From: a virus
Strand: one strand, 5' to 3'
Virus record (IMG/VR): IMGVR_UViG_3300049215_000519
Coordinates: 1 to 64,000 of that record
DNA: 64,000 nt
This document shows positions 423-62,447 of the stretch, piece after piece (the stretch's first letter is position 1; each line of letters starts with the position of its first letter). The notes beneath the pieces were generated by a model. That model was not told the DNA's origin. It ran no database searches and worked only from the letters and a program-made list of their open reading frames with translations. Position numbers and translations under genes: made by a program.

Positions 423-443
423 GTCAGACCCAGCCTGTAGATT
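423..443 (+). promoter_or_regulatory. GTCAGACC-N7-TANNNN element (copy 1), 8 nt upstream of thyX ATG
   Basis: GTCAGACCCAGCCTGTAGATT, then cgagatcg, then ATG at 452. First 18 nt identical to the copy at 39612..39632. Confidence 0.5.
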
Positions 444-451
444 CGAGATCG

Positions 452-1309
452 ATGGAAACGTATCTTGATTCTGTTGGTAGGACGATGATCAACGTTCTCG
501 ATTGTGGCTATGTTCAGCTGATCGAGTCGTGGGGCTCCGATGAGCGCATCATCGAAGCAGCCCGCATGTCGACTGGAAAGGGTTTCAAGGGGTGGGGAGA
601 CCTCTGCAAGCTCTGTGGTGGCCCAGCATGGGCGCGTGGACAGATCCGAACCGATGATCGGACCGACAATCCGAGGCCGCGCTATTGTAGTGGCTGTGGC
701 CCTGTAGACTTTGAGTCGGGCGACGAGAAATTGTTGAAGAGGCTCTGGGACAAGCGGCACTCGTCGCCGTTCGAGATGGCGGGGATCGTCATCGAGGTTC
801 AGGCCCCGATCTTCGTCTTCCGCCAGTGGCATCGTCATCGCACGCAGAGCTACAATGAGCACAGCGCGCGGTACTCGCCGCTCCCTGATCTCAACTACGT
901 GCCGACCGTCGAGCGGCTCATGATGGCCAGCAAGACGAATAAGCAGGCTGGCATCGCCAAAGGCGCTGCCGAACTGACGGAGGCAAACGCAGAGATCTTC
1001 CGCGAGAAGCTCGTGTACATGTACAGCATCCAGCAAGAGCTGTACACACTTGCTCTTGGCTCAGGCGTGGCCAAAGAGCTGGCGAGGGTTCATCTACCGG
1101 TAGGGCGCTACTCGAAGATGCGCGCGAGTGGGAACCTGCGCAACATGCTTGGCTTCCTCGCGTTGCGCGATCATCCCGATGCACAGTGGGAGGAGCAGCA
1201 GTACGCCAAAGCCGTCGGCACGATCGTACAGCAGCTGTTCCCGCGCACGTACAAGCTCTTCCACGACTCTCAACTCCGAGAGTACGCTCGTGAGCAGGAG
1301 GCACAATGA
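452..1309 (+). CDS. thyX: Flavin-dependent thymidylate synthase ThyX with a Cys4 insertion
   Basis: RHRTQSYNEHSARY matches the ThyX signature RHRxxSxxxxSxRY. SPFE and FVFRQWHRHR motifs present. Extra CxxC...CxxC segment at residues about 46-89. Confidence 0.9.
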   Translation: METYLDSVGRTMINVLDCGYVQLIESWGSDERIIEAARMSTGKGFKGWGDLCKLCGGPAWARGQIRTDDRTDNPRPRYCSGCGPVDFESGDEKLLKRLWDKRHSSPFEMAGIVIEVQAPIFVFRQWHRHRTQSYNEHSARYSPLPDLNYVPTVERLMMASKTNKQAGIAKGAAELTEANAEIFREKLVYMYSIQQELYTLALGSGVAKELARVHLPVGRYSKMRASGNLRNMLGFLALRDHPDAQWEEQQYAKAVGTIVQQLFPRTYKLFHDSQLREYAREQEAQ

Positions 1310-1668
1310 GTCTGCCCACCGACGACAAATCGCGCAAGGCGCTGCCGATCTTCACCGGCCCGTTGATGTACTTCCCCGACGCACTGTTGGAGCTTGCTGC
1401 GGTGTGCAAGGCGGGCAACGAACAGCATAGCCCAGGAGAGCCACTTCATTGGGCGCGCGAGAAGTCGGTCGATCAGCTCAACACGGCGCTGCGACACATG
1501 ATGGATCATGGCACTGGGACGCGTGTCGATGTGGATGGGCGGTATCACCTGGCCAAGGCTGCCTGGCGCCTTCTCGCCGAGTTGCAGCTGTCGATCGAGG
1601 AGGCCGCTGGCAAGACCATGCGGGGTCCCGATGGCGTGCCGCGCGCAGTAGATCCGGCCAAGAAATGA
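1306..1668 (+). CDS. dATP/dGTP diphosphohydrolase-like (DUF5664-like) small protein
   Basis: ATGA overlap with thyX stop. Pattern KALPIF..P.ALLELA..(G)..H....W...S...L..AL.RH....G...D.DG..HLAKAAWRLLA recalls the phage dNTP diphosphohydrolase N-terminal domain. Confidence 0.4.
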   Translation: MSLPTDDKSRKALPIFTGPLMYFPDALLELAAVCKAGNEQHSPGEPLHWAREKSVDQLNTALRHMMDHGTGTRVDVDGRYHLAKAAWRLLAELQLSIEEAAGKTMRGPDGVPRAVDPAKK

Positions 1669-2798
1669 TCCCGTTGTTCAAGGTGCTCATGGCCGCAGAC
1701 GCAGACCAGCGCGTCGGAGAGGTGCTGCGATCGGGCTACATCTCCGAGGGGCCTGTCGTCGCCGAGTACGAACGCGTGATGCAGGAGACGCTCGCGCTTC
1801 CTGATCGGCCGCTTGCGGTCAACTCTGGCACGAGCGCGCTCCATCTCGCGCTCAAGCTAGCCGGAGTCGGCTACGGAGACTACGTACTCGTGTCGCCGAT
1901 GACGTGCTCGGCGACCATCGTGCCGATCATCCATCTCGGCGCGCGGCCGGTGTGGGTCGACGTCGATCCGGTGACTGGCCTCATGACGCCGCTGACGCTC
2001 AGCAACGCGGCGGCGGGCATGCTTCCGGGCGACATCAGGGCCGTCGTCTCGATCGACTGGGCCGGCACGCCATGCGACTACGAGGGCCTGCGCAAGAGCG
2101 TTGATCTCTACCAGAAGAACGTACCGATCATTCAGGATGCTGCACACGCGATGTTCGCCAAGGATCGCATCGGCAGGCAGATCGGCGCGACTCGAGACCC
2201 GAACCACTATGTGTGCTGGTCGACCCAGGCGATCAAGCTGCTCACGACCGGCGATGGTGGGCTGCTCTTGCCGCCAGCCGCGCAGAACATGCGCGCGCGC
2301 AAGCTGAGGTGGTTCGGGCTCGACCGTGAGAGCAAGAAGGACTTCCGCTGCGAGCAGGACATCACCGAGGCGGGCTTCAAGTACCACATGAACGACATCT
2401 CTGCGGCGATCGGCCTTGCGAACCTGCCGTACGCGCTGTTGCATTCTTCCTACCATCGTAGGAACGCGATGAGGTTTTACCAGGCGTTCAAGGATCTCTC
2501 TCCGCGCGTGATCGTTCCACCATTCAACTCTGGCTCGAGCTACTGGATCTACACGATCCTCGTCGACGATCGCGAGTCGTTCACGCAGTGGATGACCGAG
2601 CGCGAGATTCAGGTCTCTCAGGTGCATCGCCGCGTTGACACTCATCCAGCTTTCGACGATGCAGCTAAATTTCGAACCAACTTGCCAGGCCTGAACGAGT
2701 TTGCAGCCCATCAGATCAGCATTCCCTGCCATTGGGCTCTATCTGAATCTGAAGTTACCCAAATTATTGGGGCGGTCACCTTGTGGGTATATCGATGA
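1665..2798 (+). CDS. DegT/DnrJ/EryC1-family PLP-dependent sugar aminotransferase
   Basis: ATG at 1665 overlaps the upstream TGA (ATGA). NSGTSALHLALKLAGVGYGDYVLVSPMT and AIKLLTTGDGGLLL (PLP lysine context) are typical of the family. The 1449 start in the track is an upstream extension. Confidence 0.85.
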   Translation: MIPLFKVLMAADADQRVGEVLRSGYISEGPVVAEYERVMQETLALPDRPLAVNSGTSALHLALKLAGVGYGDYVLVSPMTCSATIVPIIHLGARPVWVDVDPVTGLMTPLTLSNAAAGMLPGDIRAVVSIDWAGTPCDYEGLRKSVDLYQKNVPIIQDAAHAMFAKDRIGRQIGATRDPNHYVCWSTQAIKLLTTGDGGLLLPPAAQNMRARKLRWFGLDRESKKDFRCEQDITEAGFKYHMNDISAAIGLANLPYALLHSSYHRRNAMRFYQAFKDLSPRVIVPPFNSGSSYWIYTILVDDRESFTQWMTEREIQVSQVHRRVDTHPAFDDAAKFRTNLPGLNEFAAHQISIPCHWALSESEVTQIIGAVTLWVYR

Positions 2799-2828
2799 GG
2801 GCGCCTTATCGACGCCTAGGGGCATGAC

Positions 2829-3293
2829 ATGCTAGAGAGCTTCCTTCATCGCGTGACCGGGCTTGAGGACGCGGAGCGGATGCGCGAGATCCGCAACTCA
2901 TGTCGGCAGTTCATGACCCGCAACACGCTCGAGATCTCCGTCGACGAGCAGAAGATATGGTTTCTCACGCTCGAGAATGAGACGAGACCCTTCTTGCTCG
3001 CGGTCGATGTTGAGGGACAACCCAAGGTTGGGTACGGGCTCATCCGCATGATCGACGGCTGCTACTGGATCTCAGGTGGGCTTCTGCCCGAGTGGCGCGG
3101 CAAGGGTCTCGGCAAGCGGCTCTTCGCCGAGCTGGCGCGCATCGTCAACATCGTCGAGAAGAGGACGTGTTGGCTCGAGGTCAGAGCCAGCAACATGATC
3201 GCCCAACGCGTCTATCAAAGCCTCGGCTTTGAGTTCGTCTCGATCAACACCGAGCAATTCGTCTCATGGACGATGCGAAGGCGAATCAGATGA
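2829..3293 (+). CDS. GNAT-family N-acetyltransferase
   Basis: WRGKGLGKRLFAELARI (acetyl-CoA loop R/Q-x-x-G-x-G/A) and AQRVYQSLGFEFV are typical GNAT motifs. Confidence 0.75.
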   Translation: MLESFLHRVTGLEDAERMREIRNSCRQFMTRNTLEISVDEQKIWFLTLENETRPFLLAVDVEGQPKVGYGLIRMIDGCYWISGGLLPEWRGKGLGKRLFAELARIVNIVEKRTCWLEVRASNMIAQRVYQSLGFEFVSINTEQFVSWTMRRRIR

Positions 3294-3838
3294 GGGGGAT
3301 TGCTTACCAGTTGTCTGGGTTACGATTTGGTAGACTAGTTGTCGTCGAGAAATCTAAGTCTATCGTGGAGGGCGGTCGATATTATACGGCGTGGCGGTGT
3401 CAAGGTGACTGTGGCTCGGAAAAAGTGGCCAAGGGGGTTCATTTGCAGGCCGGCTACACCAAAAGTTGTGGCTGCCTCCTTCGAGGCCATGCCCCCTCAC
3501 TTACCCATGGTGAGACATGTGGAGGCAGACGATCTATTCGCTACTACTTATGGTTCAACGCAAAAACCAGGGCCAAAAAATTCAACCTCCCATTTGATCT
3601 GAGGCTAGACGATATTGAAGTACCAGATCGTTGTCCGGTACTCGGAATCGAACTAGTGAGGAACTCTGGCGGGTGGCGAGATAACAGCCCAACTATTGAT
3701 CGTGTGCAGGGGTGTCTGGGTTATGTCCGAGGCAATGTGTGCGTAATCAGTTTGCGTGCAAATCGTCTGAAGTCAGACGCCTCGCTCGAGGAACTTCAAA
3801 AGCTGGTCAATTATGTTCAAGCCTGGGGGAGACGATGA
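3290..3838 (+). CDS. Free-standing HNH homing-endonuclease-like protein (copy 1)
   Basis: ATGA overlap with the GNAT stop. CPVLGIEL...SPTIDRV..GYVRGNVCVISLRANRLKSD HNH-type core and N-terminal SCGC Cys cluster. Visibly lower GC than neighbours. Paralogue of 4878..5431. Confidence 0.7.
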   Translation: MRGIAYQLSGLRFGRLVVVEKSKSIVEGGRYYTAWRCQGDCGSEKVAKGVHLQAGYTKSCGCLLRGHAPSLTHGETCGGRRSIRYYLWFNAKTRAKKFNLPFDLRLDDIEVPDRCPVLGIELVRNSGGWRDNSPTIDRVQGCLGYVRGNVCVISLRANRLKSDASLEELQKLVNYVQAWGRR

Positions 3839-4881
3839 TCGAGAGAGTGTTCGTGGTGCCGCTCAACTATAGCCATCGGCAGTCGGGGCTCATCCACGCC
3901 TTCGACGAGATCTTCGGCTACTCGAACGTTCACTCGGCATTCGACTACATGGCGATGCATCGCCGAGGAATGACCAGCAACCAGATCAACGGCAGCTTGT
4001 TCGACAGCGTGAGAAAGTTCAGGCCAGACTGGATCTGGATGCAGCTGCAGACTTCTGATATCGTCACGTCCGAAGTCGTAGAGAACATCAAGCAGGTCTT
4101 GCCGCAAACGATCGTCACGCATTGGATGGGTGATCTGCGCACTGAGGTACCCGATCATCTGGCCCGTATTTGTAAAGCGACCGACGCAACGTTGCTCTCG
4201 AACCGAGGTCAGTTCCAGCTATACCAAGCTGCGGGCGCCAAGCGTGTGCACTACACGCAGATCGGCCTCGACTGGGACGAGGACGTGCTCGGGCTGTCGT
4301 GGAACGGCGACAAGACCAACCGTGAAGTGTGGGAGCCGCCGTTCCGCGTGCCAGAGGTCGTATTCTGCGGTGGCTACTACGAGCACATGCCTGGCCACAA
4401 GCTGCGCCTAGCCGCGATCCGTCGGTTGCTGGAGGAGAAGATCGACGTCGGCGTCGTCAGCGAGAGTCCGTGGCCGTCAGACATCCCTGTCGTCGGTAGC
4501 TGCCACGTCAAGCAACAACACGCGGTGTATCGTCGTGCCAAGGTCGTGCTGTCGATCAACAACTACAACGACATCGAGAACTACTTCAGCGATCGTCAGC
4601 TGATCGCGATGGCCTCGGGTACGCCGGTTGTTGCGCGTTGGGTTCCAGGCCTCGACGATCTTGAGTACGGCTTCCGAACGCATGAGTGCAGCATGTTCGG
4701 CAGCTATCTGGACGACAGCCTCGATAGCATGGTCAAGCGCGTGAAGCGGCTGCTCGCGAACGAGGAGCTACGCCAGTCGATCGGGATGGCTGGCCGGATG
4801 CGCGTGATGCGCGACCACTCGTGGCACACACGCATCCTCGATCTCTTGCCTGTCGTCGAATCATGGAGGGCTCAGCTGTGA
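3835..4881 (+). CDS. Glycosyltransferase, CgeB-like / GT1-type C-terminal domain
   Basis: ATGA overlap at 3835. YRRAKVVLSINNYNDIENYFSDRQLIAMASGTPVVARWVPGLDDL resembles the CgeB / Glyco_trans_1_2 C-terminus. Confidence 0.6.
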   Translation: MIERVFVVPLNYSHRQSGLIHAFDEIFGYSNVHSAFDYMAMHRRGMTSNQINGSLFDSVRKFRPDWIWMQLQTSDIVTSEVVENIKQVLPQTIVTHWMGDLRTEVPDHLARICKATDATLLSNRGQFQLYQAAGAKRVHYTQIGLDWDEDVLGLSWNGDKTNREVWEPPFRVPEVVFCGGYYEHMPGHKLRLAAIRRLLEEKIDVGVVSESPWPSDIPVVGSCHVKQQHAVYRRAKVVLSINNYNDIENYFSDRQLIAMASGTPVVARWVPGLDDLEYGFRTHECSMFGSYLDDSLDSMVKRVKRLLANEELRQSIGMAGRMRVMRDHSWHTRILDLLPVVESWRAQL

Positions 4882-5431
4882 GACCAGCTAATCTAGCTGG
4901 AAGAGTGTTTGGTCGCTGGTCGGTGAAGAGCCGTGATGGAAGTCGCCTCTACGGAAAGTGCAGCAATGCGCTTGGCTGTGTATTTGCGCCTGTGGTAGGC
5001 GTGGGACAGTAACTAGCGCCGCCTTGACTACCGGACGAAGCAAAAGCTGCGGGTGTTGGCGCAAAGAGAAACTGGCTGCAGGAATCGGCAAGACCCACGG
5101 ACTGAGTGACACCACTATTTACAACTTGTGGCAAGGTGCGAAGAGGCGGGCCAAAGCTCAGGGGGTAGCGTTCGATCTCAAGCTAGAAGACATCGTTATT
5201 CCAAAGATCTGCCCGGCCCTAGGGATTGAAATCGTTCCGCATCGCGGTAAAGGGGCGTCTCCGCATAGCCCAACGATCGATCGGATCATTCCTTCGCTAG
5301 GCTATGTCAGGCGAAACATCGAGGTGATCAGCCATCGCGCCAATGCGATCAAAAACAACGCCTCAATCGAGGAACTTGGGCAAGTTCTCGGCCATGTGCG
5401 GATGATAACCCGTTTGAGAGGACTTCGATGA
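4878..5431 (+). pseudogene. HNH homing-endonuclease-like gene (copy 2) interrupted by a 1-nt frameshift
   Basis: GTG at 4878 overlaps the upstream TGA. The N-terminal part (VRPANLAGRVFGRWSVKSRDGSRLYGK) is in frame 0. The rest (CAWLCICACG...SPTIDRI..GYVRRNIEVISHRANAIKNN) is in the frame of ORF 4958..5431. The junction lies at the AAA run 4955-4957. Confidence 0.55.
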
Positions 5432-6135: not shown

Positions 6136-6154
6136 TCGGGGTACGATCAGGGTT

Positions 6155-9078: not shown

Positions 9079-9371
9079 TGAAGAAGTTGGTTCTCTTGTT
9101 CTTGATCGCAGCGTGTTGGCGAACCAAGTTCGTCGAGAAGCCCGTCGTGCGCATCGAGCGTCGTGATCACTGGGCCGCGTGCTTGGTCTCCCCTCCGCCC
9201 AAGGCGCCCATCCCGTCTGTGCCACCCAGCTTGACGCTGATGAGCATCCAGGATTGGGAGGACATCGAGCGCGCGAAGTGGGCTGACTACGGCCACGCCG
9301 CGGCGACGTGGATCGACCGGTACGCGTGGCCGCGCTGCCAGTTCGACGAGAAGACGCAGCAGTTCAAGTGA
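9078..9371 (+). CDS. Small putative lipoprotein
   Basis: [13 protein letters not shown] has a signal peptide plus lipobox-like LIAAC. Start overlaps the gmd stop. Confidence 0.5.
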   Translation: MKKLVLLFLIAACWRTKFVEKPVVRIERRDHWAACLVSPPPKAPIPSVPPSLTLMSIQDWEDIERAKWADYGHAAATWIDRYAWPRCQFDEKTQQFK

Positions 9372-13171: not shown

Positions 13172-13192
13172 TACCTATCAGCTGGGTCTGAC
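13172..13192 (-). promoter_or_regulatory. GTCAGACC-N7-TANNNN element (copy 2)
   Basis: Minus-strand GTCAGACCCAGCTGATAGGTA. It sits 31 nt upstream of the ATG at 13140, the longest leader of the set. Confidence 0.4.
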
Positions 13193-13281
13193 ATCGTGAT
13201 CAGTTGGGCGACGGTCGGAACGAGGTTTGGGCCTGTTAAGCCTGCTCACTTGATCAGAGATCGCCGAACGAAGTCAAGCAT

Positions 13282-13310: not shown

Positions 13311-13316
13311 GTCTGC

Positions 13317-14182: not shown

Positions 14183-14887
14183 CTAGCGCCGTCGACGACG
14201 CGCGCTCGCGTGGGAGAGGCCTTCCTGCATCAGCTGGATGGCCTCTTCGTACGTTTCGGGCATCGCCTCCGCGAACGCGTGGCTGAGCGCGACGTGGGCC
14301 GCCTTGATGGCGACGGCCTTCGCCGCGTTGTAGCCCTCGCCGACGCTCGGCATCGTGCCGTAGGCCCATTGCGATACGATGGATCGGAGAAGCTCGGACG
14401 TTGTCAAGCCTTCCGATTCGGCTCGCGTTCGGATCAGTGCCTCCAGGTCATCGGGTAGCCGTACAGCCATAGGTTGGGCCATTTTGACTCGTTTCAGGAT
14501 GTCAGACCGAGCTGGTAGACGTGTGCTCGATGATACTAGCCCGGCTCGGCCACGAGGCCAACGACCGGTCTCGGGGAGGACTAGCGGGCCTCTTCGCCCG
14601 TTCTCCTGGTTAGTAACTGCTTCCAAATGCGCAGGGTTACAACAACATTTGACCTTGCACAGATGATCGGTAACGAAGCCAACAGGAAATGGGCCTCTGT
14701 CAGCTGAGTAGCACATCCGATGAACGAACCGACCATTAAACCTGCCGTATCCCAAGTCGTTTAGGTTACCTAGCCACAACCAACATCCGCCCATAGGTTC
14801 CGGTAGGACATTTTTCCAAAACGATTTCGGCAATGTAGAGTCATACAACGTAAGCATCCAAAATACACCGTAAGCATTTGTATACAT
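14183..14887 (-). CDS. HNH endonuclease domain continuous in frame with an RHH (CopG/Arc-like) domain
   Basis: The N-terminal part has GYGRFNGRFVHRMCY....DHLCKVKCCCNPAHLEAVTNQEN (HNH_3-like) and is AT-rich. The C-terminal part from MAQPMAVRLPDDLEALIRTRAESEGLTTSELLRSIV (possible own start at 14482) is RHH-like and ends RRRRR. Confidence 0.55.
   Translation of the reverse strand: MYTNAYGVFWMLTLYDSTLPKSFWKNVLPEPMGGCWLWLGNLNDLGYGRFNGRFVHRMCYSADRGPFPVGFVTDHLCKVKCCCNPAHLEAVTNQENGRRGPLVLPETGRWPRGRAGLVSSSTRLPARSDILKRVKMAQPMAVRLPDDLEALIRTRAESEGLTTSELLRSIVSQWAYGTMPSVGEGYNAAKAVAIKAAHVALSHAFAEAMPETYEEAIQLMQEGLSHASARRRRR
14501..14521 (+). promoter_or_regulatory. GTCAGACC-N7-TANNNN element (orphan copy, antisense to the HNH/RHH ORF)
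   Basis: GTCAGACCGAGCTGGTAGACG, then 8 nt, then an ATG at 14530 that opens only a 27-codon ORF. Confidence 0.35.
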
Positions 14888-22594: not shown

Positions 22595-22748
22595 GAGGAC
22601 TGACGTGGCTACGCTGGTCTCACCCGATTCAGTGGCCTGCGCTCTGGGCCTTCGACACCGGCAACTCGCGCGCGTACTGGGTCTGGACCTACCGCGTGTG
22701 GAACGGCTTCTCGTACTATCGCGAAGACACCTGGCGCTCGTGCTAGCT

Positions 22749-22769
22749 GTCAGACCCGTCCGCTATCTT
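22749..22769 (+). promoter_or_regulatory. GTCAGACC-N7-TANNNN element (copy 3)
   Basis: GTCAGACCCGTCCGCTATCTT, then 11 nt, then ATG at 22781. Confidence 0.4.
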
Positions 22770-22780
22770 CGGAGTGCCTC

Positions 22781-29480: not shown

Positions 29481-29695
29481 CAGTTCTCGAATCCTTCTGG
29501 GTCGGGCAAGCCCATCTTGCGGCGGTTCGCGATCACGAAGTCAACCAGCTCGGTCTTCTCGAATTTCTCGCACATCGGCAGCGTGTGAATCCCGACCGGC
29601 TCTCCGTGCTCGGTGCCGTCGTCGACGAACGCGAGCACGAGACGCGCGCCGCAGAAAGCGCAGACGGTGTCGACCTTGCCGAGCTTGAGCTTCAA
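29480..29695 (-). CDS. Small CxxC protein
   Basis: ATGA overlap with the LuxR-type gene. VCAFCGARL....LPMC. Confidence 0.55.
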   Translation of the reverse strand: MKLKLGKVDTVCAFCGARLVLAFVDDGTEHGEPVGIHTLPMCEKFEKTELVDFVIANRRKMGLPDPEGFEN

Positions 29696-29937
29696 AGCGG
29701 GCAGATCCCGATCTTCGCGAGCAGGCGAGCGAGCGCGACGTTGTTGCGCAGGCCCAGCTTCTTCAAGATGTGCCCGCGATGCGTGTCAACGGTCTTGACC
29801 GAGATCTCCAGCCTGTCGGCGACCTCACGATTGGTGTCGCCGTAGCCGAGACGTTCGGCGACCTGCCTCTCTCGAGTGGTCAACGCTGCGATCGGGCTCT
29901 GTTCGTCGGCGGTAGTTTCGGTCTCGTGATCTTCCAT
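29692..29937 (-). CDS. LuxR/GerE-type HTH transcription regulator
   Basis: LTTRERQVAERLGYGDTNREVADRLEISVKTVDTHRGHILKKLG. Start MEDHE at 29937, just after the dam stop. Confidence 0.75.
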   Translation of the reverse strand: MEDHETETTADEQSPIAALTTRERQVAERLGYGDTNREVADRLEISVKTVDTHRGHILKKLGLRNNVALARLLAKIGICPL

Positions 29938-29939
29938 GG

Positions 29940-30764
29940 TCAGCTCCTGATGAGTAGGCACTTCTTCTTGCCTCGTTGATCTTTGGTCGGGCCAACCGAG
30001 TGTCGCTCGTCGATCTCCTCGATCTTGGCCCAAGCGTAGATCTCTCGAATGAGGGGCGTGTCGCTATTGGTTGCCCAGATTCTACTTCCACGATACGCAA
30101 GCTGCTCGAGATCGGCAGCAAGGTCCCGCTGATCGTTCTCGTTGAAACCATCCTTGGTGTAGCCGGTGAACGTATCATGATACGGACAGTCGGCGTATAC
30201 GGCCACGCCACGGTTGAAGATGATCACATCGCTGTTGGCAAGTAGATCATGTGCCTTCATCGTGAAGAGCTGCACGGTCTGCAGCCAGCCATAGAGTCGC
30301 GCGGCTTCGTCGATGTCGATCGACGCGGGCTCCTTGAACTTGCCCCAGGGCACGTTGAAGAACCCTCTCGAGTTCGTGCGCCAGAGCCCGTTGTAGCAGC
30401 GCGCGTTGATGTAGAGGAAGAGCGCCGCACGGCGGAACCAGTACGGACATGGATCGAGGATTGATCGGTTCAGCTCGGCACGCGCGTCGAGGTAGCCTGC
30501 CTGCGAGTTGGGGTACTGCCGCACCACCCGCTCGAGTTCGGCGATCAGCGTCGTCGGCGAGCGCTGCAAGCAACGCCACGCATCCATGAGCGTCGTGTTC
30601 GTGTCGTTCAGGATCTTGGGAATCGAGTCCTTGATCGCGAGCGCGATCGCACCCCCGCCCACGAACGGCTCGACGTAGACTCGAGGCCCCATCTCCTCGA
30701 TCTCGGCAGCGACGCGCTCAGCGAGCCACCGCTTCCCGCCGGCCCATCTCGTGAACGGCTTCAC
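29940..30764 (-). CDS. dam: DNA adenine methyltransferase (Dam / D12 class)
   Basis: FTRWAGGKRWL, EPFVGGGAIAL (motif I), YADCPY (DPPY variant). Confidence 0.85.
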   Translation of the reverse strand: MKPFTRWAGGKRWLAERVAAEIEEMGPRVYVEPFVGGGAIALAIKDSIPKILNDTNTTLMDAWRCLQRSPTTLIAELERVVRQYPNSQAGYLDARAELNRSILDPCPYWFRRAALFLYINARCYNGLWRTNSRGFFNVPWGKFKEPASIDIDEAARLYGWLQTVQLFTMKAHDLLANSDVIIFNRGVAVYADCPYHDTFTGYTKDGFNENDQRDLAADLEQLAYRGSRIWATNSDTPLIREIYAWAKIEEIDERHSVGPTKDQRGKKKCLLIRS

Positions 30765-32692: not shown

Positions 32693-32994
32693 GCTTCTTC
32701 TGTATCACCTGAGTCTGACACCGCGTCGGGCTCCTTGAAGGCTGACTTGGTCTTCCCCACGTCGTAGCTCTCAAAGGCCTTGTTGACCCCGTCCAAGATC
32801 GCCTCTCGCCGGATCCCAGAGGCCTGCAACATGTCGATGCCAGCCCCCAAGAGCGTCACGCCGACGTACTCCGGCGACCAGCCCTTCTTGACCAGCCGCT
32901 TCGAGATGCGCATGATGCGCGAGTTGACCTCGACGAGGGCTTTAGCCCTCTCGAGCTGCTTGACGGTTCGTGCTGCGAGTTCAAAAACGTTCAT
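32689..32994 (-). CDS. Hypothetical protein
   Basis: ATGA overlap with the polymerase stop. ORF track entry. Confidence 0.55.
   Translation of the reverse strand: MNVFELAARTVKQLERAKALVEVNSRIMRISKRLVKKGWSPEYVGVTLLGAGIDMLQASGIRREAILDGVNKAFESYDVGKTKSAFKEPDAVSDSGDTEEA
32699..32719 (-). promoter_or_regulatory. GTCAGACC-N7-TANNNN element (variant GTCAGACT)
   Basis: Minus-strand GTCAGACTCAGGTGATACAGA, then 6 nt, then ATG at 32692. Embedded in the 3' end of gene 32689..32994. Confidence 0.4.
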
Positions 32995-37627: not shown

Positions 37628-37649
37628 CTCTATGTGGTTCGCGTCTGAC
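37628..37649 (-). promoter_or_regulatory. Degenerate GTCAGACG element
   Basis: GTCAGACGCGAACCACATAGAG. The TA is displaced by 2 nt and the downstream gene has a normal SD-containing leader. Confidence 0.25.
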
Positions 37650-39440: not shown

Positions 39441-39903
39441 GCTTGGTCTTCCTCGGTCCGCGTTTGGTCAGGCCGTTGGTGTGCAGTGGGTGCAAGCTCT
39501 CTCGGCCGCACCGCTCGTCGCGGCACGGGATGAAATCGATCTCGTCGAGAAAGTCGCGCTGTGGTTGCACGACGATCGTCTTGGGCTCAGGCAGCCTCAT
39601 CTGTCGCGGTAACACTACAGGCTGGGTCTGACTCTGTGCGGCTTGCAGACGCTTGACCTTCTCCTCGAGCTGAACAGCGTAATGCTCGACGAGCCGCGTG
39701 CGCTCGTTCGCTTCTCGCACTTTCGTTTGCAGTTCAGTATTTTGCGTCGTGAGCTGCAAGTTTCTCGCGATCAGCCGAGTATCGTTGCCGGTCTTCTCGA
39801 CGTGTTCGAGCACGCGCTCGAGAAGTTCGATGGGCTCATCGAGCGTCACGCAGCCCACGCTGTGCAGCAATAGAAAACGCCTCGCGTCGGTGATCGCGCT
39901 CAT
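39433..39903 (-). CDS. Hypothetical coiled-coil protein with internal promoter-like element
   Basis: AGGAGG lies 5 nt upstream of the ATG at 39903. Contains motif copy 39612..39632 followed by the in-frame ATG 39600. Confidence 0.55.
   Translation of the reverse strand: MSAITDARRFLLLHSVGCVTLDEPIELLERVLEHVEKTGNDTRLIARNLQLTTQNTELQTKVREANERTRLVEHYAVQLEEKVKRLQAAQSQTQPVVLPRQMRLPEPKTIVVQPQRDFLDEIDFIPCRDERCGRESLHPLHTNGLTKRGPRKTKHA
39612..39632 (-). promoter_or_regulatory. GTCAGACC-N7-TANNNN element (intragenic copy)
   Basis: GTCAGACCCAGCCTGTAGTGT, then 11 nt, then in-frame ATG at 39600. Confidence 0.4.
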
Positions 39904-42480: not shown

Positions 42481-42501
42481 CTTGTATCAGATGGGTCTGA
42501 C
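42481..42501 (-). promoter_or_regulatory. GTCAGACC-N7-TANNNN element
   Basis: GTCAGACCCATCTGATACAAG, then 8 nt, then ATG at 42472. Lies between the SNF2 stop and the next gene. Confidence 0.45.
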
Positions 42502-42507
42502 AGCTTG

Positions 42508-44071: not shown

Positions 44072-44092
44072 AGACTACGCCCTCGGTCTGAC
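44072..44092 (-). promoter_or_regulatory. GTCAGACC-N7-TANNNN element driving SNF2
   Basis: GTCAGACCGAGGGCGTAGTCT, then 7 nt, then ATG at 44064. Confidence 0.5.
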
Positions 44093-44102
44093 TCCTCGCG
44101 CT

Positions 44103-44123
44103 GTCAGACCCATGGGGTAGCTT
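44103..44123 (+). promoter_or_regulatory. GTCAGACC-N7-TANNNN element driving gene 44132
   Basis: GTCAGACCCATGGGGTAGCTT, then 8 nt, then GTG at 44132. Back-to-back with the copy at 44072..44092, boxes 10 nt apart. Confidence 0.5.
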
Positions 44124-45760: not shown

Positions 45761-45953
45761 CGAGGACGAGGCTGGCAAGACCAGATACTTGTACACCGCG
45801 GCGTGGTACGGCACGAAAGGCGAGCTGAGCGACGAGCAAGCTCACAAGCTGTTCCAGACGCTCGGCTGGAAGAACACGTGGGCCAAGTGGTACCAGCGCG
45901 CCTGGTGGTGGCTCAAGGGCGTCTACCGGCGTGTTGTCAGACCCATCGAGTAA
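45741..45953 (+). CDS. Trp-rich hypothetical protein
   Basis: ORF track entry. Overlaps the upstream gene by 20 nt. Its 3' end contains motif copy 45936..45956. Confidence 0.45.
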   Translation: MKLTISDEDEAGKTRYLYTAAWYGTKGELSDEQAHKLFQTLGWKNTWAKWYQRAWWWLKGVYRRVVRPIE

Positions 45954-45956
45954 AAC
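45936..45956 (+). promoter_or_regulatory. GTCAGACC-N7-TANNNN element
   Basis: GTCAGACCCATCGAGTAAAAC, then 6 nt, then GTG at 45963. Near-identical to the copy at 55917..55937. Confidence 0.45.
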
Positions 45957-49782: not shown

Positions 49783-49823
49783 GACCCAAGGCTACCACTT
49801 CGACGGCGGGTTAAGCTTCGTGC

Positions 49824-50532: not shown

Positions 50533-51297
50533 TTGACCGATGGTACCAAGGAGGTTAGATCGGGAACCATGCCAAGAGCCAGAATCCGCGTGACCGCCAT
50601 TTCAGATACCTCGGTGACCCTAAATACTGTGGACGTGCCACGAGAGCTGTGGAACATCCTGGAACAGTGGGGATCCCTTCAGAGATTGAGCGCCAACCAA
50701 TCCTTTTGGATCTTCATGCTCAAGACCCTTACCGCAATCAAGAAGCGGAACCCGGCGTTCGAGGAGATCACGGCCGCATGTCATATGGGCCGCGAGAAAG
50801 CCATGGCGGATGAGGAGGATCGATCTGATCCTCAGGCAGTCAAGGCAAGGGATCTACCGCCGGTAGAATCCTACTACGACCTGCTCGAGACGAACGACAA
50901 GGCTGCGAGCGGATTCGTTGGTGTCTACCAAAACGGCAAAGCGTTCAGGGCGTCAGCCCCAAGGCCTGATGGACGTGGCAGTCGGAACGCGGTGAATGTG
51001 GGTACCTACGAAACCCCAGATCAAGCTGCGTTAGCCCGCCTGCTCTACTACCGGAAGCACAAGCTGATTTACGGTCGGCACGCCTTTGAGATCACAAGGC
51101 ATCAACAGATGCTCCATGAAATGGGTCGGACGGACACAACTTTCGAGGAGGCTCTTGAGTCCTTGAACGAGGCACGTGAGATGCGAGGCCAGGTGCGCAT
51201 CGAGATAGCAGACAACTGGCTTCTGTACATCGGAGAGAGGCCGACAGCGCTACTGGAGTTGCCTAGCGACGACGGCGCCGACGCTGCTTCTTCATGA
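50533..51297 (+). CDS. AP2-domain DNA-binding protein
   Basis: SGFVGVYQNGKAFRASAP.....VNVGTYETPDQAALARLLYY fits the AP2/integrase DNA-binding fold pattern. The start is uncertain (TTG 50533 or ATG 50569). Confidence 0.5.
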   Translation: MTDGTKEVRSGTMPRARIRVTAISDTSVTLNTVDVPRELWNILEQWGSLQRLSANQSFWIFMLKTLTAIKKRNPAFEEITAACHMGREKAMADEEDRSDPQAVKARDLPPVESYYDLLETNDKAASGFVGVYQNGKAFRASAPRPDGRGSRNAVNVGTYETPDQAALARLLYYRKHKLIYGRHAFEITRHQQMLHEMGRTDTTFEEALESLNEAREMRGQVRIEIADNWLLYIGERPTALLELPSDDGADAASS

Positions 51298-52354: not shown

Positions 52355-52612
52355 TCAGACTCCTATGAGCAGTTGTCGTAGTTTGCCGGCCCAGCCGAGG
52401 TCGTATCCCGACGGAGCCACGAAGAACAGGATCGGCAAATAGCGGTCAGTCGGGTTGAAGATGTTCACCATTTCTCGACTGATCGTCGTCACCTGCATCC
52501 CCACCTTGATCAAGGTCAGGACCACCGGAGCCTCCGCTGGCGTCATCGGTGGAGTCACCTTGATCATCAGCGACCGGCCCGGAGGTAGGAAGCTCGTTCG
52601 CAGGTTTCTCAT
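52355..52612 (-). CDS. Hypothetical protein
   Basis: Third-position GC is clearly high in this frame from 52612 downward. The ATG at 52612 forms ATGA with a TGA in the -1 frame of the upstream gene. Confidence 0.5.
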   Translation of the reverse strand: MRNLRTSFLPPGRSLMIKVTPPMTPAEAPVVLTLIKVGMQVTTISREMVNIFNPTDRYLPILFFVAPSGYDLGWAGKLRQLLIGV

Positions 52613-52874
52613 TCCGGGGTTTCTTCTTTGGTTTGAGCTTCTTGCCTGGAGGATTCGACTCCCACTGGTACGGCTCCTTGTCGGCGTCGCCTTGGAAGAC
52701 TCCGCCGATCCGCCGGCCCCGCGTGCGCAGGTACGTGACCTCGAGCCCTAGCAGCTTCGCCGCGGCGTCCTCGTCCCAGTCAGCATAGACCAGAGCATCT
52801 CGCATTAGCTGCCGCTCGTGGCGACGCAGCTGTACGAAGAACGAGGCGTTGGGGTCACCCTTCGCACCCTTCAT
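52446..52874 (-). pseudogene. Fis-type HTH protein gene, probably frameshifted near its 3' end
   Basis: GGAGG lies upstream of the ATG at 52874. LMRDALVYADWDEDAAAKLLGLEVTYLRTRGRRIG is HTH_8-like. After the C4 run (plus 52616-52619) the frame loses GC3 bias. The -1 frame stops at TGA 52609-52611. Confidence 0.5.
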
Positions 52875-53714: not shown

Positions 53715-53743
53715 TTGACGTTCCCCTAGTCTAGGAGTAAGTA
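53715..53743 (+). promoter_or_regulatory. sigma70-like promoter with leaderless start
   Basis: TTGACG-N17-TAAGTA, then 6 nt, then GTG at 53750. Confidence 0.5.
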
Positions 53744-53749
53744 CATCAC

Positions 53750-55915
53750 GTGTCGAAAACATCTAAGTCTATCCCGAAGTCCCTCGACGCGGCGGCACTC
53801 GAGGAGATGGTGGAGCCTCTGACCATTCAGATCCAGAGGCAAAAGAATGGGATGCTGTCGCCTATCCCGATGCCGATCGGTGAGAGTGGGCAACCAGGTG
53901 TTGGATGGTCGAAGGCAGAGGTGCTCGCGATCGATCAGGGCTGGCTCGTCAACCACTGGTCAGGTGGCGGCTACTACGTCATCACCGTGACCGATGACAC
54001 TCGGCCCACACCCAAGAAACTCGTGTGGAATCCGATGTGGGACCCGGCGCTCTACCCCGAGAAGGTTCCACCGACGCTTGCCGACGCGGCGCGGCCGGGC
54101 ATCTTGGTCCAGCAACAGCAACCCGCGCAACCTCAACCAACGTCTCAACCTCAACCGCAGTTGATACCTCAACCGCAGTTGATACCTCAACCCCAGCAGG
54201 TGCCCATGTCGCAGTTTCCTGGTGGCCTACCTACGGGTGGGCTTCTCCCCATCCACACTGCCCAGTCGGGCTATCCTCAGCCGTCGCCGACGTACGCGCC
54301 TCAGCAGCCGTACTACAACCAGCCGCAGGGGTATCCTCAGGGATACCAGCAGGGCTATAACCCGATGATGGCTCAGATGGAAGCCGATCGTCGGCGACTC
54401 GAGGAACAGGTTGCTGCGATGCAGGTGGCGCTGCGCGCGACCGAGCTGGATGCGGTGCGGAAGCAGTACGCAGCCGAGCTGGAACGTGAGAAAGCTTCCA
54501 ACGCTGCAATGATCCAGCGTCTCGAGCAGAGGATTGCTGAGTTCACGGCGAGCGCGGCGACATCGAAGGTGAGCCCCGAGGTCGAGACGATTCGCGAGCA
54601 GATGCGCGCGCAGCAGGCTCAGCTCGAGTCGGAGCGCCGCGAGCGCGAGGCCGAGCGGCGCGAGCGCGAGATGCGCGAGCTGGTCGCCGGGCAGAATGCT
54701 CAGATCCAACGCCAGATCGAGCAGATGCAGCAAAACTACCAGATGATGGTGCAGGCTCAGGCTACCAAGGGGCCTGATCCTCTCATCCAGGTGATGATGG
54801 ACCAGAGCCGTAACTCGATGGAGGCCATGAAGGAGATCGCGCGCCAGTCGGGGGCCGCGATCGACAAGTTCCAGGCCTTCATGATGTCGCCGCGCGACGT
54901 CATGTCGATCACCAAGGACGCGTCGAACGGTCTAGACAACGTGACTCAGAAGATGACTCAGATGTTCTCGGGCGTGTTCGATCTGCAGAACAAGGTGCTC
55001 GAGAGCGCGATGTCGCTCAACCAAGGCGGCAACGACACCGTGGGGCTCATCCGCGAGGGCGTGACGAACGCCAAGGATCTATTCGAGCGCTACATCGTGT
55101 CGAAGAGCCGCGAAGCGCAGGTGACCGCGCAGGCGAGCGCCGCGACTGCACAGGCACAAGCACAGGCCGCAGCAGTGCGCGCGCAAGCTGATGCTTCAAT
55201 CGCGCAGTCTCGTCGGATGCCGCAGCAAGCTGGCCCGAACGGTGAAACGAGGGTGCAGCAAACGTCGTCGGCGATGCCTCAGCAGGCTGGGTTAGCTGGT
55301 CCGCCTGCGGGGCCTGGGAATGGCCGACCCAACGGCCATACCAACGGCAATGGCCAGCCCAACGGTAAGGCGGCTTTTGATGCGTGGCAGCAATCACGGC
55401 AGCAGGGTGAGCCGGCGAGGCCGACGCAGGCATACGTTCCCGAGCCCGCCCCTCCGCCTCAGCCGGCACCAGCGCAACATCAAGCGGCGCCGAGCGCCGT
55501 CGAAGTGATCGCGCAGCCGATGGTAAAATCCGATCAGGAATGGTTTGGCCCGCTCTTGCCCGAGGTGATCCAGCTGCGGCGCAGCGTCGATCTGTTCTTC
55601 GTCGGACTGCGGAAGCAGCCGCCCGTCGTCCAGCCCGGCAGTGCAGATCCGGCTGCAGTTGCCAAGGGCATCGCCACTGCGCTGCAGGCTGTGATGCAGC
55701 ACAACATCCCGATCCCGGCGTTGAACGAGCTGCTCGCGCCGGGCGACTTCGAGGGCTTCTTCCGCGTGCTCTTGCCCGCAGCCACACCCGAGTTCCATGC
55801 CGATGCGATCCACGAACTGAAGCAGCTGCTTGGCCTACCGCCTGAAGAAGGCGAAGAAGAGGACGACTTCGGGGACGACGACAGCGACGACGTGCGCGAC
55901 GGCGCGTCAGCATGA
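53750..55915 (+). CDS. 721-aa protein: globular N-domain, PQ-repeat linker, long coiled coil, acidic tail
   Basis: 18-nt tandem repeat at 54149..54192 (PQLIPQ, 2 copies). E/R/Q-rich heptad-like region. C-terminus EEGEEEDDFGDDDSDD. Confidence 0.65.
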   Translation: MSKTSKSIPKSLDAAALEEMVEPLTIQIQRQKNGMLSPIPMPIGESGQPGVGWSKAEVLAIDQGWLVNHWSGGGYYVITVTDDTRPTPKKLVWNPMWDPALYPEKVPPTLADAARPGILVQQQQPAQPQPTSQPQPQLIPQPQLIPQPQQVPMSQFPGGLPTGGLLPIHTAQSGYPQPSPTYAPQQPYYNQPQGYPQGYQQGYNPMMAQMEADRRRLEEQVAAMQVALRATELDAVRKQYAAELEREKASNAAMIQRLEQRIAEFTASAATSKVSPEVETIREQMRAQQAQLESERREREAERREREMRELVAGQNAQIQRQIEQMQQNYQMMVQAQATKGPDPLIQVMMDQSRNSMEAMKEIARQSGAAIDKFQAFMMSPRDVMSITKDASNGLDNVTQKMTQMFSGVFDLQNKVLESAMSLNQGGNDTVGLIREGVTNAKDLFERYIVSKSREAQVTAQASAATAQAQAQAAAVRAQADASIAQSRRMPQQAGPNGETRVQQTSSAMPQQAGLAGPPAGPGNGRPNGHTNGNGQPNGKAAFDAWQQSRQQGEPARPTQAYVPEPAPPPQPAPAQHQAAPSAVEVIAQPMVKSDQEWFGPLLPEVIQLRRSVDLFFVGLRKQPPVVQPGSADPAAVAKGIATALQAVMQHNIPIPALNELLAPGDFEGFFRVLLPAATPEFHADAIHELKQLLGLPPEEGEEEDDFGDDDSDDVRDGASA

Positions 55916-55916
55916 A

Positions 55917-55937
55917 GTCAGACCCATCGAGTACAAC
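55917..55937 (+). promoter_or_regulatory. GTCAGACC-N7-TANNNN element
   Basis: GTCAGACCCATCGAGTACAAC, then 6 nt, then GTG at 55944. Confidence 0.45.
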
Positions 55938-58291: not shown

Positions 58292-58311
58292 GTCATGAGC
58301 CTAACACGGAT

Positions 58312-59287: not shown

Positions 59288-59302
59288 CGTGGGTAACCTT
59301 TG

Positions 59303-60823: not shown

Positions 60824-60843
60824 GCGGCAAGGCTACCACGTAG

Positions 60844-61176: not shown

Positions 61177-61214
61177 GCAGAGCAGGCTACCACGCTGTGG
61201 TAGGCTTGTGCCAA

Positions 61215-61907
61215 ATGGCTAGCCTCCTCAAGATCTCCGGTTGGCTCGGGGTCGGGCTGCTCGCGACGGGGATCTACCTCTATTGGCGCGAGAAGAAGCT
61301 GCAAGGCCTCGGTGGGCATCGCTACATGGCTGGTCGCTTTGCAGAGGCACCCGTCGTCGACAGCTACTCCGACGGCAACATGACCACGGTACTGCGCGCG
61401 AGCCAAGACATGCCGATCGAACAAAGGATCGCCTCGATTCAGAAGCTGATCGAGAAGAGCGTGCAAGACCCCGAGATGAGAAAACTAGCTGGAGTTCTGA
61501 CTGCACACTGCGGTGATCGGGATGGTACATGCGAGGCAAAGGCGATCTACAAGGCCATCAAGAAACGTGTTCGCTATGTCGGAGACGTGGCCCCGATCAA
61601 ATGGTCGTCAGGTGATGTAGAAGGTATTGATTTGTATCAGAGTGCGAGAAGGACCTGGGAGCTGAAAATAGGTGATTGTGATGACATGGCTATCCTTGCC
61701 TCTACCTTGCTCTCTGTCATCGGAATCACGTCACGATTGAGAGTTACTGCAGAGTCCGCTGATGCGGACTGGGGTCACATTTATGCCGTCGGGTTGTTAC
61801 CTAAGTTTTCCCCGACTTACGCTGTCGCCTTAGATACGACGTTGCCCGGCTCCTCTAAATTTGGAGTCGAAGTGCCTTCAGGCAAGATCATGGATTTTGA
61901 TGCCTGA
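61215..61907 (+). CDS. N-terminally membrane-anchored transglutaminase-like cysteine enzyme
   Basis: TM segment ISGWLGVGLLATGIYLYW. GDCDDMAILASTLLSVIGI (Cys), WGHIYAV (His), ALDTT (Asp). TAGGCT-N8-ATG at 61215 (the track starts at GTG 61197). Confidence 0.6.
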   Translation: MASLLKISGWLGVGLLATGIYLYWREKKLQGLGGHRYMAGRFAEAPVVDSYSDGNMTTVLRASQDMPIEQRIASIQKLIEKSVQDPEMRKLAGVLTAHCGDRDGTCEAKAIYKAIKKRVRYVGDVAPIKWSSGDVEGIDLYQSARRTWELKIGDCDDMAILASTLLSVIGITSRLRVTAESADADWGHIYAVGLLPKFSPTYAVALDTTLPGSSKFGVEVPSGKIMDFDA

Positions 61908-62419
61908 AGATACTCTGCAGCGGCAATCAGTCTAGTTGATGAGTCCTTGAAGTGCCCTAGGCCCTGATTGCAGGAATTGCAGAGCAGGCCTCGAATCTTC
62001 TTCGTGTGATGATCGTGGTCAACAGCAAGTTTCATCACGCGGCCGAGCTTCATCGTTGTCTCAGGCTGCTTGCAGATTTTGCAGACTCCACTCTGTTCGA
62101 GCATCATGCGTTCGAAGTCGTTTGGAGTCAGTCCCAACCGACGTAGTTTATTTTTGTGATTTAGTGCGATCTCTTTTTCGCGATAGCTTGGGTCATCGCG
62201 TCGACGTTGGTTCTGGCGGGCCTTTTTACGCTCGAGCCTGGCTCGTTTATAGTGGGGGTCAATTGTTAGCGTTTTCATCTTGGCGAGCTTTGCTTCTCGA
62301 AAACCTGGCTTGGTTCGATAGCGTTCTCGGTCATACGCGTTCCAGCATTTTCGACAGCGGCCAAGTCGATGAGGATCAACCTCTCCGGTTTGGAGGCACT
62401 TTGGGCATAGGATCGTCAT
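61817..62419 (-). CDS. Endonuclease VII-family (Endo_7) nuclease
   Basis: CKICKQ....LAVDHDHHTKKIRGLLCNSCNQGLGHFKDS...AAAEYL. ATG at 62419 lies 7 nt after the motif hexamer. AT-richer than the surroundings. Confidence 0.75.
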   Translation of the reverse strand: MTILCPKCLQTGEVDPHRLGRCRKCWNAYDRERYRTKPGFREAKLAKMKTLTIDPHYKRARLERKKARQNQRRRDDPSYREKEIALNHKNKLRRLGLTPNDFERMMLEQSGVCKICKQPETTMKLGRVMKLAVDHDHHTKKIRGLLCNSCNQGLGHFKDSSTRLIAAAEYLQASKSMILPEGTSTPNLEEPGNVVSKATA

Positions 62420-62426
62420 GCCTTCC

Positions 62427-62447
62427 AAAATACACCGGACGTCTGAC
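62427..62447 (-). promoter_or_regulatory. GTCAGACC-N7-TANNNN element (variant GTCAGACG)
   Basis: GTCAGACGTCCGGTGTATTTT, then 7 nt, then ATG at 62419. Confidence 0.45.

Follow-up and report, generated by a model that had tools for sequence, protein, structure and literature searches.

What does a short, strictly oriented sequence do that recurs twelve times along a phage genome, mostly just ahead of genes? The question is raised by IMG/VR virus record IMGVR_UViG_3300049215_000519, whose positions 1 to 64,000 (the window) were analysed here. The window comes from a novel tailed phage whose genome measures about 85 kb, and all window scans were limited to these 64 kb. A preliminary description of the same DNA had listed 12 copies of an element in which a box (GTCAGACC in most copies) is followed by a spacer of seven nucleotides (nt) and a hexamer beginning with TA, and had read it either as a virus-specific promoter giving leaderless messenger RNAs or as an operator resembling the stoperators of mycobacteriophages. 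Comparative evidence favours the first proposal and disfavours the second. The element is very probably a promoter, and we consider it probable that it forms the core of a promoter class without a -35 hexamer, specific to this phage lineage, which serves leaderless middle genes and relies on a dedicated factor to recognize its upstream block. Its geometry, its statistics, its conservation, the absence of a -35 and a gene context that demands a promoter are established here.

A composite element of fixed geometry

All 12 copies were recovered at the coordinates and on the strands first given for them, and in every copy the spacer is indeed 7 nt long. The null model consisted of 100 dinucleotide-preserving shuffles of the window, scanned on both strands, a control that the preliminary description had itself proposed. 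GTCAGAC-N8-TA occurs 12 times in the window against 0.37 ± 0.63 copies expected, and the highest count reached in any shuffle was 3, which rules out a chance origin. The bare 7-mer GTCAGAC is found 21 times where 13.2 are expected; the signal therefore resides in the composite element. The copies are dispersed and do not cluster, and iterons or a replication origin were ruled out on this ground.

The family is sharp. Ten sites carry GTCAGACC exactly and one each carries GTCAGACT and GTCAGACG, both a single mismatch away. When up to two mismatches are allowed in GTCAGACC-N7-TA, 35 sites are found and 41.9 are expected, and there is therefore no halo of weak or degenerate copies. Boxes standing alone (GTCAGACC/G at 15857, 22348, 33049(-) and 49373) number about what chance would give. 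The invariant TA is the more telling because this dinucleotide is depleted in the window, which has 60% G+C and 2661 occurrences of TA on both strands compared with about 5100 expected from composition, roughly half. Some pairs of copies share longer identity, as had been noticed: 18 nt between sites 423 and 39632 and 17 nt between sites 45936 and 55917 (sites are named by the first base of their box).

The conserved block reaches further upstream than first described. With the first G of the box numbered +1, the alignment of the 12 copies has C at -5 in all of them, G at -2 in 11 and T or A at 0 in all, and these columns belong to six positions (-5 to 0) that the element as first described lacked. 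Directly after the box, C is present in nine copies and A in ten, and the spacer starts with CA in eight, as reported. The consensus, C-N2-G-N-W-GTCAGACC-CA-N5-TA, measures 23 bp and would extend from about -33 to -11 if the start codon is the transcription start. A position matrix of 66 sites, built from the window sites and seven related loci, conserves the same columns, C(-5), G(-2) and T(0). The hexamer follows the pattern TA[G/C]nn[T], with TA invariant in the window copies; its third position is G or C in 58 of the 66 sites, and its sixth is T in 6 of the 12 window sites and 31 of the 66 overall. The extension TGn directly precedes TA in four of the window sites and in seven of the nine sites of a related locus (L123, see below).

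In promoter numbering the T of TA was set at -12 to -14; with -12, the upstream block covers -33 to -18. The earlier remark that the box lies only 7 nt from a -10-like hexamer is true yet incomplete, since this longer block spans the usual -35 position. In the window and 66-site matrices, the columns that correspond to a -35 (labels -8 to -1) contain no TTGACA pattern, and a generic sigma70 scan of the 38–57 kb region returned 4 sites for 4.0 expected, none of them at the element.

Gene context and start codons

Every copy points the way that local transcription runs, towards the downstream genes. Nine of the 12 lie within the 13% of the window that the gene map leaves non-coding, and the other three overlap gene ends or the interior of one open reading frame (ORF). 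At nine sites an ATG or GTG (RTG) follows the hexamer after 6–8 nt (n = 6–8); the background frequency of such codons is 0.10 (P = 1.7e-7 for nine of 12). Seven of these codons open a substantial ORF and two a tiny one (Table 1). The original statement that 11 of the 12 copies lie 6–11 nt from a start codon is correct as a count, but only those seven open substantial ORFs at n = 6–8; two further sites have n = 11 and two open ORFs of just 22–27 amino acids (aa). The distance of 31 nt to the ATG at 13140 was found as described. Among the gene labels proposed at the outset, thyX, SNF2 and EndoVII are confirmed, and the label 'MazG-like' for 45963-46550, which has no Pfam match, is unsupported.

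In five genes (thyX, SNF2 and those encoding the 542-aa, 195-aa and 105-aa proteins) the codon at n = 6–8 is the earliest possible start of the ORF. A leader bearing a Shine-Dalgarno sequence therefore does not fit, and any leader would have to originate upstream of the element. Logan gene calls on an identical contig (L119) pick the same starts. The motif genes have no Shine-Dalgarno sequence at a usable distance, and many internal genes have GGAGG-type sites. The divergent genes for SNF2 and the 542-aa primase-like protein are especially instructive: they stand 67 nt apart, and the interval holds two back-to-back copies of the element and almost nothing else, so each gene needs its promoter exactly there.

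A -10 element usually lies 6–8 nt ahead of the transcription start. The same 6–8 nt separate the TA hexamer from the RTG codon in all three promoter classes of the window, namely the box sites, the classical -35/-10 sites and the extended -10 sites. Since the classical and extended -10 sites share this distance, leaderless expression appears to be general in this phage, and by analogy TA would correspond to the -10 element and the start codon to +1. That transcription begins at the start codon is on these grounds quite probable. For leaderless translation in mycobacteria, an ATG or GTG at the very 5' end is both required and enough, and small ORFs often occupy the 5' ends of transcripts (PMC4633059). 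The GTG starts seen here, and likewise the two tiny ORFs, agree with this.

Conservation in related phages

A query with the SNF2 protein against 5.8 billion proteins revealed a large metagenomic family, as seen in the best 120 of 357 relatives, with many members on contigs of 76–95 kb. The SNF2 neighbourhoods of six relatives were compared (L120 to L125, with 88, 64, 70, 55, 54 and 52% SNF2 identity, respectively). Copies of GTCAGACC-N7-TA number 5 in L120, 6 in L121 and about 7 in L122, and public gene calls, made without regard to the motif, put the start at n = 6–8 for 5 of 5, 5 of 7 and 4 of 7 sites, respectively. An unbiased count, per locus, of the 8-mers located 7 nt upstream of any TA-N10-12-RTG ranks GTCAGACC first in the window and in L120–L122. 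The top 8-mer of L123 is GTCGGACC, with 6 copies by this count and 8 by pattern scan; the top words are G[TAC]CG[GT]ACC variants (GnCGKACC) in L124 and G[TA]CAG[AC]CC (GWCAGMCC) in L125. The box thus drifts among distant relatives, while N7 and TA are retained throughout and the spacer sequence is free to vary.

The architecture of the divergent pair is kept in L120–L125. Across the window and these loci the distance from box to box is -3, 10, 10, 12, 12, 14 or 43 nt; the copies are therefore independent units and not halves of one palindromic operator, and a palindromic dimer operator was ruled out by this spacing. Individual positions are kept as well. L121 and L122 have a canonical copy in front of the PolA operon, where the window has a degenerate relative, and in relatives the promoters at the position equivalent to 32699..32725 open a predicted leaderless gene of 99–119 aa before UvrD. 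At the corresponding place in the window, 32577-32692(-), a 22-aa ORF is followed by a separate 77-aa ORF, and this split could reflect a frameshift, an assembly error or gene decay.

In L123 the public calls for 7542-8225, 8226-9920 and 11635-12060 begin at ATGTCGGAC, where the ATG consists of a conserved 'AT' and the first G of the box. The true starts likely lie about 28 nt downstream of the called ATG, at n = 7, and starts at ATGTCGGAC look like a systematic mis-annotation in this phage family.

Among isolated phages no close relative was found by DNA or by capsid-region protein, and SNF2 reaches at most 29% identity with isolate proteins. No close relatives were found in IMG/VR either, where an exact-pattern scan for GTCAGACCCAGCNNNTA gave single matches per contig, compatible with chance, and a literature search for a matching motif returned nothing specific. 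The low-identity matches are predominantly to actinophages; together with the TAG/TAC-type hexamers, the GTG leaderless genes, the GGAGG Shine-Dalgarno sites and the GP88 domain, these matches suggest a host among the Actinomycetota.

How the element may be read

In the reading that we prefer, the block C-N2-G-N-W-GTCAGACC-CA, at about -33 to -18, would stand in for the -35 hexamer. It would be followed by a short spacer, whose 3' end is often TGn, by the -10-like hexamer TA[G/C]nn[T] and, 6–8 nt further, by an ATG or GTG serving as both transcription start and start codon. Region 2 of a host holoenzyme of the sigma-A type would recognize the TA hexamer, a reading suggested by the distance to the start that this hexamer shares with the classical and extended -10 sites. 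The upstream block would be bound by a dedicated specificity factor in stereospecific contact with the polymerase, which would explain the invariant N7. The invariance of N7 argues that the block-binding factor touches a polymerase sitting at the -10, and a box that is near-invariant within a genome and drifts between genomes argues for a dedicated reader. This factor would most likely be an early phage activator, in the style of sigma appropriation by MotA and AsiA of phage T4, and the regulon of DNA replication, recombination and nucleotide metabolism suggests a middle (delayed-early) class.

That the reader is a phage-encoded accessory factor, as opposed to a phage sigma factor or polymerase encoded outside the window or a host factor, is a serious though tentative proposal. 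Three window proteins are candidates (Table 1). The top Protein Data Bank (PDB) profile matches of the 242-aa protein, in its central domain, are AP2/ERF domains (AtERF1, E = 0.002; ERF096, E = 0.047), and its predicted structure (mean pLDDT 76) has an N-terminal strand-helix-helix with a weak likeness to ribbon-helix-helix (RHH) repressors. The others are a 142-aa protein with a Fis-type helix-turn-helix (HTH) and a stand-alone GerE/LuxR-type HTH. A bolder version holds that the reader is a factor of a previously undescribed type, unlike MotA/AsiA or sigma (for example, the 242-aa RHH plus AP2-like protein or the Fis-type HTH protein), which docks beside region 2/3 of the host sigma-A holoenzyme and converts it to the -33..-18 / -10 geometry for leaderless genes. 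We regard this version as doubtful; if true, sigma appropriation would have been invented a second time, independently, by a large family of uncultivated phages with probably high-GC Gram-positive hosts.

Several observations weigh against the promoter reading and its proposed reader. The T at -7 is normally near-invariant in -10 elements of the sigma70 family, yet only about half of the sites here end their hexamer in T. The transcription start is placed from geometry alone, and three sites misfit the 6–8 nt rule for a real gene (13192 with n = 31; 22749 and 39632, both with n = 11). Two further sites open nothing but ORFs of 22–27 aa, and one copy, 14501, lies antisense inside an HNH gene. 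Neither a sigma region 2, a PF00940-type (single-subunit) or multisubunit polymerase nor MotA or AsiA was detected by Pfam or PHROG scans among the about 75 window proteins, the PHROG scan covering only 20 of them, and about 21 kb of the 85-kb genome lie outside the window. The three candidate readers are guesses: the AP2-like assignment of the 242-aa protein comes from sequence profiles (E = 0.002), and a fold search with the whole model gave nothing significant, its weak matches being mostly RHH repressors and antitoxins over short stretches, with no AP2 fold. Finally, the labels of metagenome-assembled genomes containing relatives contradict one another (Polyangiales, Actinomycetes, Hyphomicrobium, Tepidisphaeraceae).

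Alternative explanations

The block could instead be the asymmetric operator of a phage repressor acting in immunity or early shut-off, with -10-only promoters used by the host polymerase unaided and binding silencing the replication regulon. Many actinobacterial promoters function without a -35, and the window encodes an integrase-like tyrosine recombinase and several small DNA-binding proteins, some of them with the RHH-like folds that repressors typically have. The stoperators of Cluster A mycobacteriophages are asymmetric sites of 13–14 bp, oriented with transcription and mostly not associated with promoters (PMC6550527). Like them, the element is short, asymmetric, dispersed and transcription-oriented (12 of 12 copies), is present a dozen or more times per genome and drifts in consensus between related phages. 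Stoperators, however, bind a repressor that stops elongation, and neither a TA nor a start codon accompanies them at a fixed distance, whereas here TA stands at N7 in every copy and RTG at n = 6–8 in nine of 12. A repressor that occludes a promoter or acts as a roadblock needs no fixed 7 nt to TA, yet that distance is kept in all 12 copies and at nearly all sites in six relatives. The chance-level number of box-only copies also speaks against an operator, and the weak hexamers, with a final T at about 50% of sites, suggest a need for help. We therefore consider an operator unlikely.

Another explanation takes the 23-bp element as the promoter of a phage RNA polymerase or sigma factor that is encoded outside the window or is too divergent to be recognized. 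In a T7-like version, GTCAGACC-N7-TA would be -17 to -1, with the start just after TA and a leader of 10–12 nt. The block is contiguous, long, near-invariant and asymmetric, ends in TA and, at 17 nt, would resemble the T7 stretch from -17 to -1; its intolerance of mismatches recalls single-subunit polymerase promoters; the scans covered about 75% of the genome; and relatives have a small protein beside SNF2 with weak Sigma70_r4 or HTH_23 matches. That HTH_23 gene, however, is absent from the window, where the scans found no polymerase, sigma region 2 or multisubunit fragment. The sole large unassigned protein, of 721 aa, was rejected as a phage polymerase, being a low-complexity, Q/P-rich coiled-coil. 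T7-type promoters are conserved through +1 to +6, whereas the four bases after TA are unconserved here and +1 would be G at just half of the sites. A fixed leader of 10–12 nt without Shine-Dalgarno sequence would have no obvious rationale, and the classical and extended -10 promoters have the same distance from TA to RTG. This explanation is quite unlikely.

It is very improbable that the element acts in RNA, as a translation or processing signal at gene starts that binds a protein or is cleaved to generate leaderless ends. The nearest parallel is the start-associated sequence (SAS) of Cluster K mycobacteriophages and its extended form (ESAS), a 13-bp repeat with an AGGAG Shine-Dalgarno core located 3–7 bp before the start codon (PMC3203893). 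SASs share with the element a tight, oriented association with the starts of non-structural genes and conservation across subclusters, and their function is unproven (PMC3203893); several copies of the element moreover lie between co-oriented genes, where read-through transcripts would include them. The element, unlike SAS, has no Shine-Dalgarno core or anti-Shine-Dalgarno complementarity, and its box lies 27–29 nt upstream of the start codon instead of 3–7. In the 67-nt divergent region, where nothing else is conserved, a promoter upstream of one copy would have to overlap the other copy or the gene on that side. With its invariant TA, its TGn and its G/C followed by T, the hexamer region looks like a -10 signature. 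A structured RNA was ruled out, as no Rfam family matches.

Comparison with known systems

The functionally closest system is the T4 middle promoter, although the element does not belong to that family. In T4 middle promoters a phage box replaces the -35 and is joined to a sigma70 -10, frequently with TGn; these promoters serve replication and nucleotide-metabolism genes and depend on an early phage activator (PMC2988021). The element shares the putative host-type -10, often with TGn, the asymmetric phage box in the place of the -35, the many copies per genome, the strict spacing from box to -10 and a replication, recombination and nucleotide regulon, and its reader is likewise expected to be an early phage protein. 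The differences are nevertheless considerable. The box sequences are unrelated (C..G.WGTCAGACCCA versus (a/t)3TGCTTtA in T4), the distance from box to -10 is 7 bp versus 12 ± 1 bp, and the block measures about 16 bp versus 9–10 bp. The element is almost intolerant of mismatches and has weak -10 hexamers, whereas MotA boxes are tolerant and T4 requires excellent -10 hexamers. Its messenger RNAs are predicted to be leaderless, unlike those of T4 middle genes, and MotA and AsiA have no homologue detected among the window proteins.

The G/C preference at the third hexamer position matches promoters of high-GC Gram-positive bacteria. Much as is predicted here, leaderless genes of Actinomycetota (for example in mycobacteria) have a TAnnnT-type hexamer 6–8 nt upstream of an ATG or GTG at which transcription and translation both begin, and they have no Shine-Dalgarno sequence. 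Tiny ORFs are found at 5' ends there too (PMC4633059). Actinomycetota host promoters differ from the element in that they are not known to have a conserved 16-bp block abutting the -10. Sigma54 promoters have GG at -24 and GC at -12 (TGGCAC-N5-TTGC) and work with an AAA+ activator (bEBP). The centres of the two blocks of the element are likewise separated by about 12 bp, but these blocks read GTCAGACC...TA; the window scans detected neither sigma54 nor an AAA+ activator, and the HTH_8 protein has no AAA+ domain. The Thermus phage phiYS40, studied by Sevostyanova et al. in 2007, reportedly lacks a polymerase of its own and has a middle/late promoter class with a -10-like element, no -35 and mostly leaderless transcripts. 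Its promoters are said to share only the -10-like element and no long upstream box, unlike the element described here.

If the promoter reading is correct, it would provide a regulatory map for a large family of metagenomic phages of about 80–95 kb without a cultured member, fix true start codons where public gene callers err (as in L123) and reveal wholesale use of leaderless messenger RNAs by a phage. The rigid N7 geometry is a sharp DNA target for finding a new polymerase-redirecting factor, and, where a host translates leaderless messenger RNAs, the element could be used as a compact cassette of 40 bp that supplies promoter and start together.

Other putative promoter classes and list of sites

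The classical sites of the form TTGnnn-N17-TAnnnn are candidate early, host-type, leaderless promoters. The GTGGTAG[GC]CT sites precede genes at 49782, 60823, 61176, 61215 and 62470, and TGGTAGSCT with at most one mismatch occurs 29 times in the window where 12.4 are expected. This sequence reads as an extended -10 (TGnTAnnnT) leaderless class, probably of another temporal class than the GTCAGACC sites.

Table 1. Element copies, other putative promoters and candidate readers in the window; n is the number of nt between hexamer and start codon
Feature	Position	Strand	Sequence	Start codon and context
Box promoter copy	417..443	+	C..G.T GTCAGACC cagcctg TAGATT	ATG 452 (n=8); opens thyX and the nucleotide/sugar-modification operon
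Box promoter copy	13172..13198	-	GTCAGACC cagctga TAGGTA	Divergent intergenic; real gene ATG 13140 (n=31), exonuclease, 442 aa; 5-codon ORF begins at n=13
Box copy, atypical	14495..14521	+	GTCAGACC gagctgg TAGACG	Antisense within HNH/RHH ORF 14183-14887; ATG 14530 (n=8) opens 27-aa ORF only; next rightward gene from 15077
Box promoter copy	22743..22769	+	GTCAGACC cgtccgc TATCTT	ATG 22781 (n=11) opens 51-aa ORF, then 2-oxoglutarate (2OG)-Fe(II) oxygenase
Box promoter copy	32699..32725	-	GTCAGACT caggtga TACAGA	In final codons of ORF 32689-32994; ATG 32692 (n=6), 22-aa ORF
Box copy	39612..39638	-	GTCAGACC cagcctg TAGTGT	Inside ORF 39433-39903; in-frame internal ATG 39600 (n=11); upstream of Sak4-like gene 38517-39440; position kept in L121 and L122
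Box promoter copy	42481..42507	-	GTCAGACC catctga TACAAG, with TGn	ATG 42472 (n=8), 58-aa membrane-like protein; GP88 and PD-(D/E)XK exonuclease genes downstream
Box promoter copy	44072..44098	-	GTCAGACC gagggcg TAGTCT	ATG 44064 (n=7) opens SNF2 helicase; half of back-to-back pair
Box promoter copy	44097..44123	+	GTCAGACC catgggg TAGCTT	GTG 44132 (n=8) opens 542-aa primase-like protein; other half of pair
Box promoter copy	45930..45956	+	GTCAGACC catcgag TAAAAC	GTG 45963 (n=6), 195-aa protein conserved in all relatives
Box promoter copy	55911..55937	+	GTCAGACC catcgag TACAAC	GTG 55944 (n=6), 105-aa membrane-like protein
Box promoter copy	62427..62453	-	GTCAGACG tccggtg TATTTT	ATG 62419 (n=7), endonuclease VII (EndoVII), 200 aa
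Degenerate relative	37628..37649	-	GTCAGACG, TA shifted to N9	Upstream of 161-aa gene and PolA
Classical promoter (candidate)	53715..53749	+	TTGACG-N17-TAAGTA-N6-GTG	721-aa gene (start 53750), predicted leaderless
Classical promoter (candidate)	13282-13316	+	TTGATC-N17-TAAGGT-N6-ATG	Gene 13317
Classical promoter (candidate)	50533-50568	+	TTGACC-N17-TAGATC-N7-ATG	Gene 50569
Extended -10 class	60830..60838	-	GTGGTAG[GC]CT-N6-8-RTG	
Extended -10 class	49789-49797	-	GTGGTAG[GC]CT-N6-8-RTG	
Extended -10 class	61184-61192	-	GTGGTAG[GC]CT-N6-8-RTG	
Extended -10 class	61198-61206	+	GTGGTAG[GC]CT-N6-8-RTG	
Extended -10 class	62454-62462	+	GTGGTAG[GC]CT-N6-8-RTG	
Extended -10 variant	58298-58306	-	Variant of GTGGTAG[GC]CT	
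Candidate reader	50569..51297	+		242 aa; putative classical promoter; conserved in L120-L124; 34 family homologues
Candidate reader	52446..52874	-		142-aa Fis-type HTH_8 protein; putative early operon; conserved in L120-L123
Candidate reader	29692..30033	-		Stand-alone GerE/LuxR-type HTH; sigma-region-4-like fold

Further observations on gene content

The genes of the window include thyX, UvrD-like and SNF2 helicases, a Sak4-like recombinase, a PD-(D/E)XK nuclease, EndoVII, a Dam-type methyltransferase and the integrase-like tyrosine recombinase. In the region 452-9371(+), aminotransferase, nucleotide-sugar epimerase and transferase genes lie downstream of thyX, and elsewhere the window has a 2OG-Fe(II) oxygenase (22774-23409(+)) and the Dam-type methyltransferase (29940-30764(-)). 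This combination of ThyX, sugar, oxygenase and methyltransferase genes is a hint of DNA base hypermodification, which, if present, could alter the reading of a promoter block that contains T and C. Within the thyX coding region, ARAGORN calls a tRNA-Ser(cga) at 738-817(+) where Rfam finds no tRNA, and the call is probably a false positive.

The ORF 14183-14887(-) joins an HNH endonuclease to a C-terminal RHH-like segment, and its codon usage is poor in the HNH part. The 721-aa protein at 53750-55915(+) is a coiled-coil protein rich in Q, P and A with an acidic tail, and it matched no family and no PDB entry; its conserved counterparts in relatives measure 668–699 aa, and its gene has a putative classical promoter. 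No relatives of the 506-aa or the 542-aa protein were found in the PDB. A strongly AT-rich island of about 140 bp (50340-50480) with TATA/TATAG-type repeats lies immediately before the 242-aa gene; it stands out in this 60% G+C genome and could be an origin or a regulatory hub. The PolA protein (32991-37106(-); 1371 aa) carries a fused N-terminal domain of the uracil-DNA glycosylase superfamily and an internal LAGLIDADG intein. The intein-free PolA of relatives measures 1029–1032 aa, and other relatives have inteins in SNF2 and in the primase-like gene.

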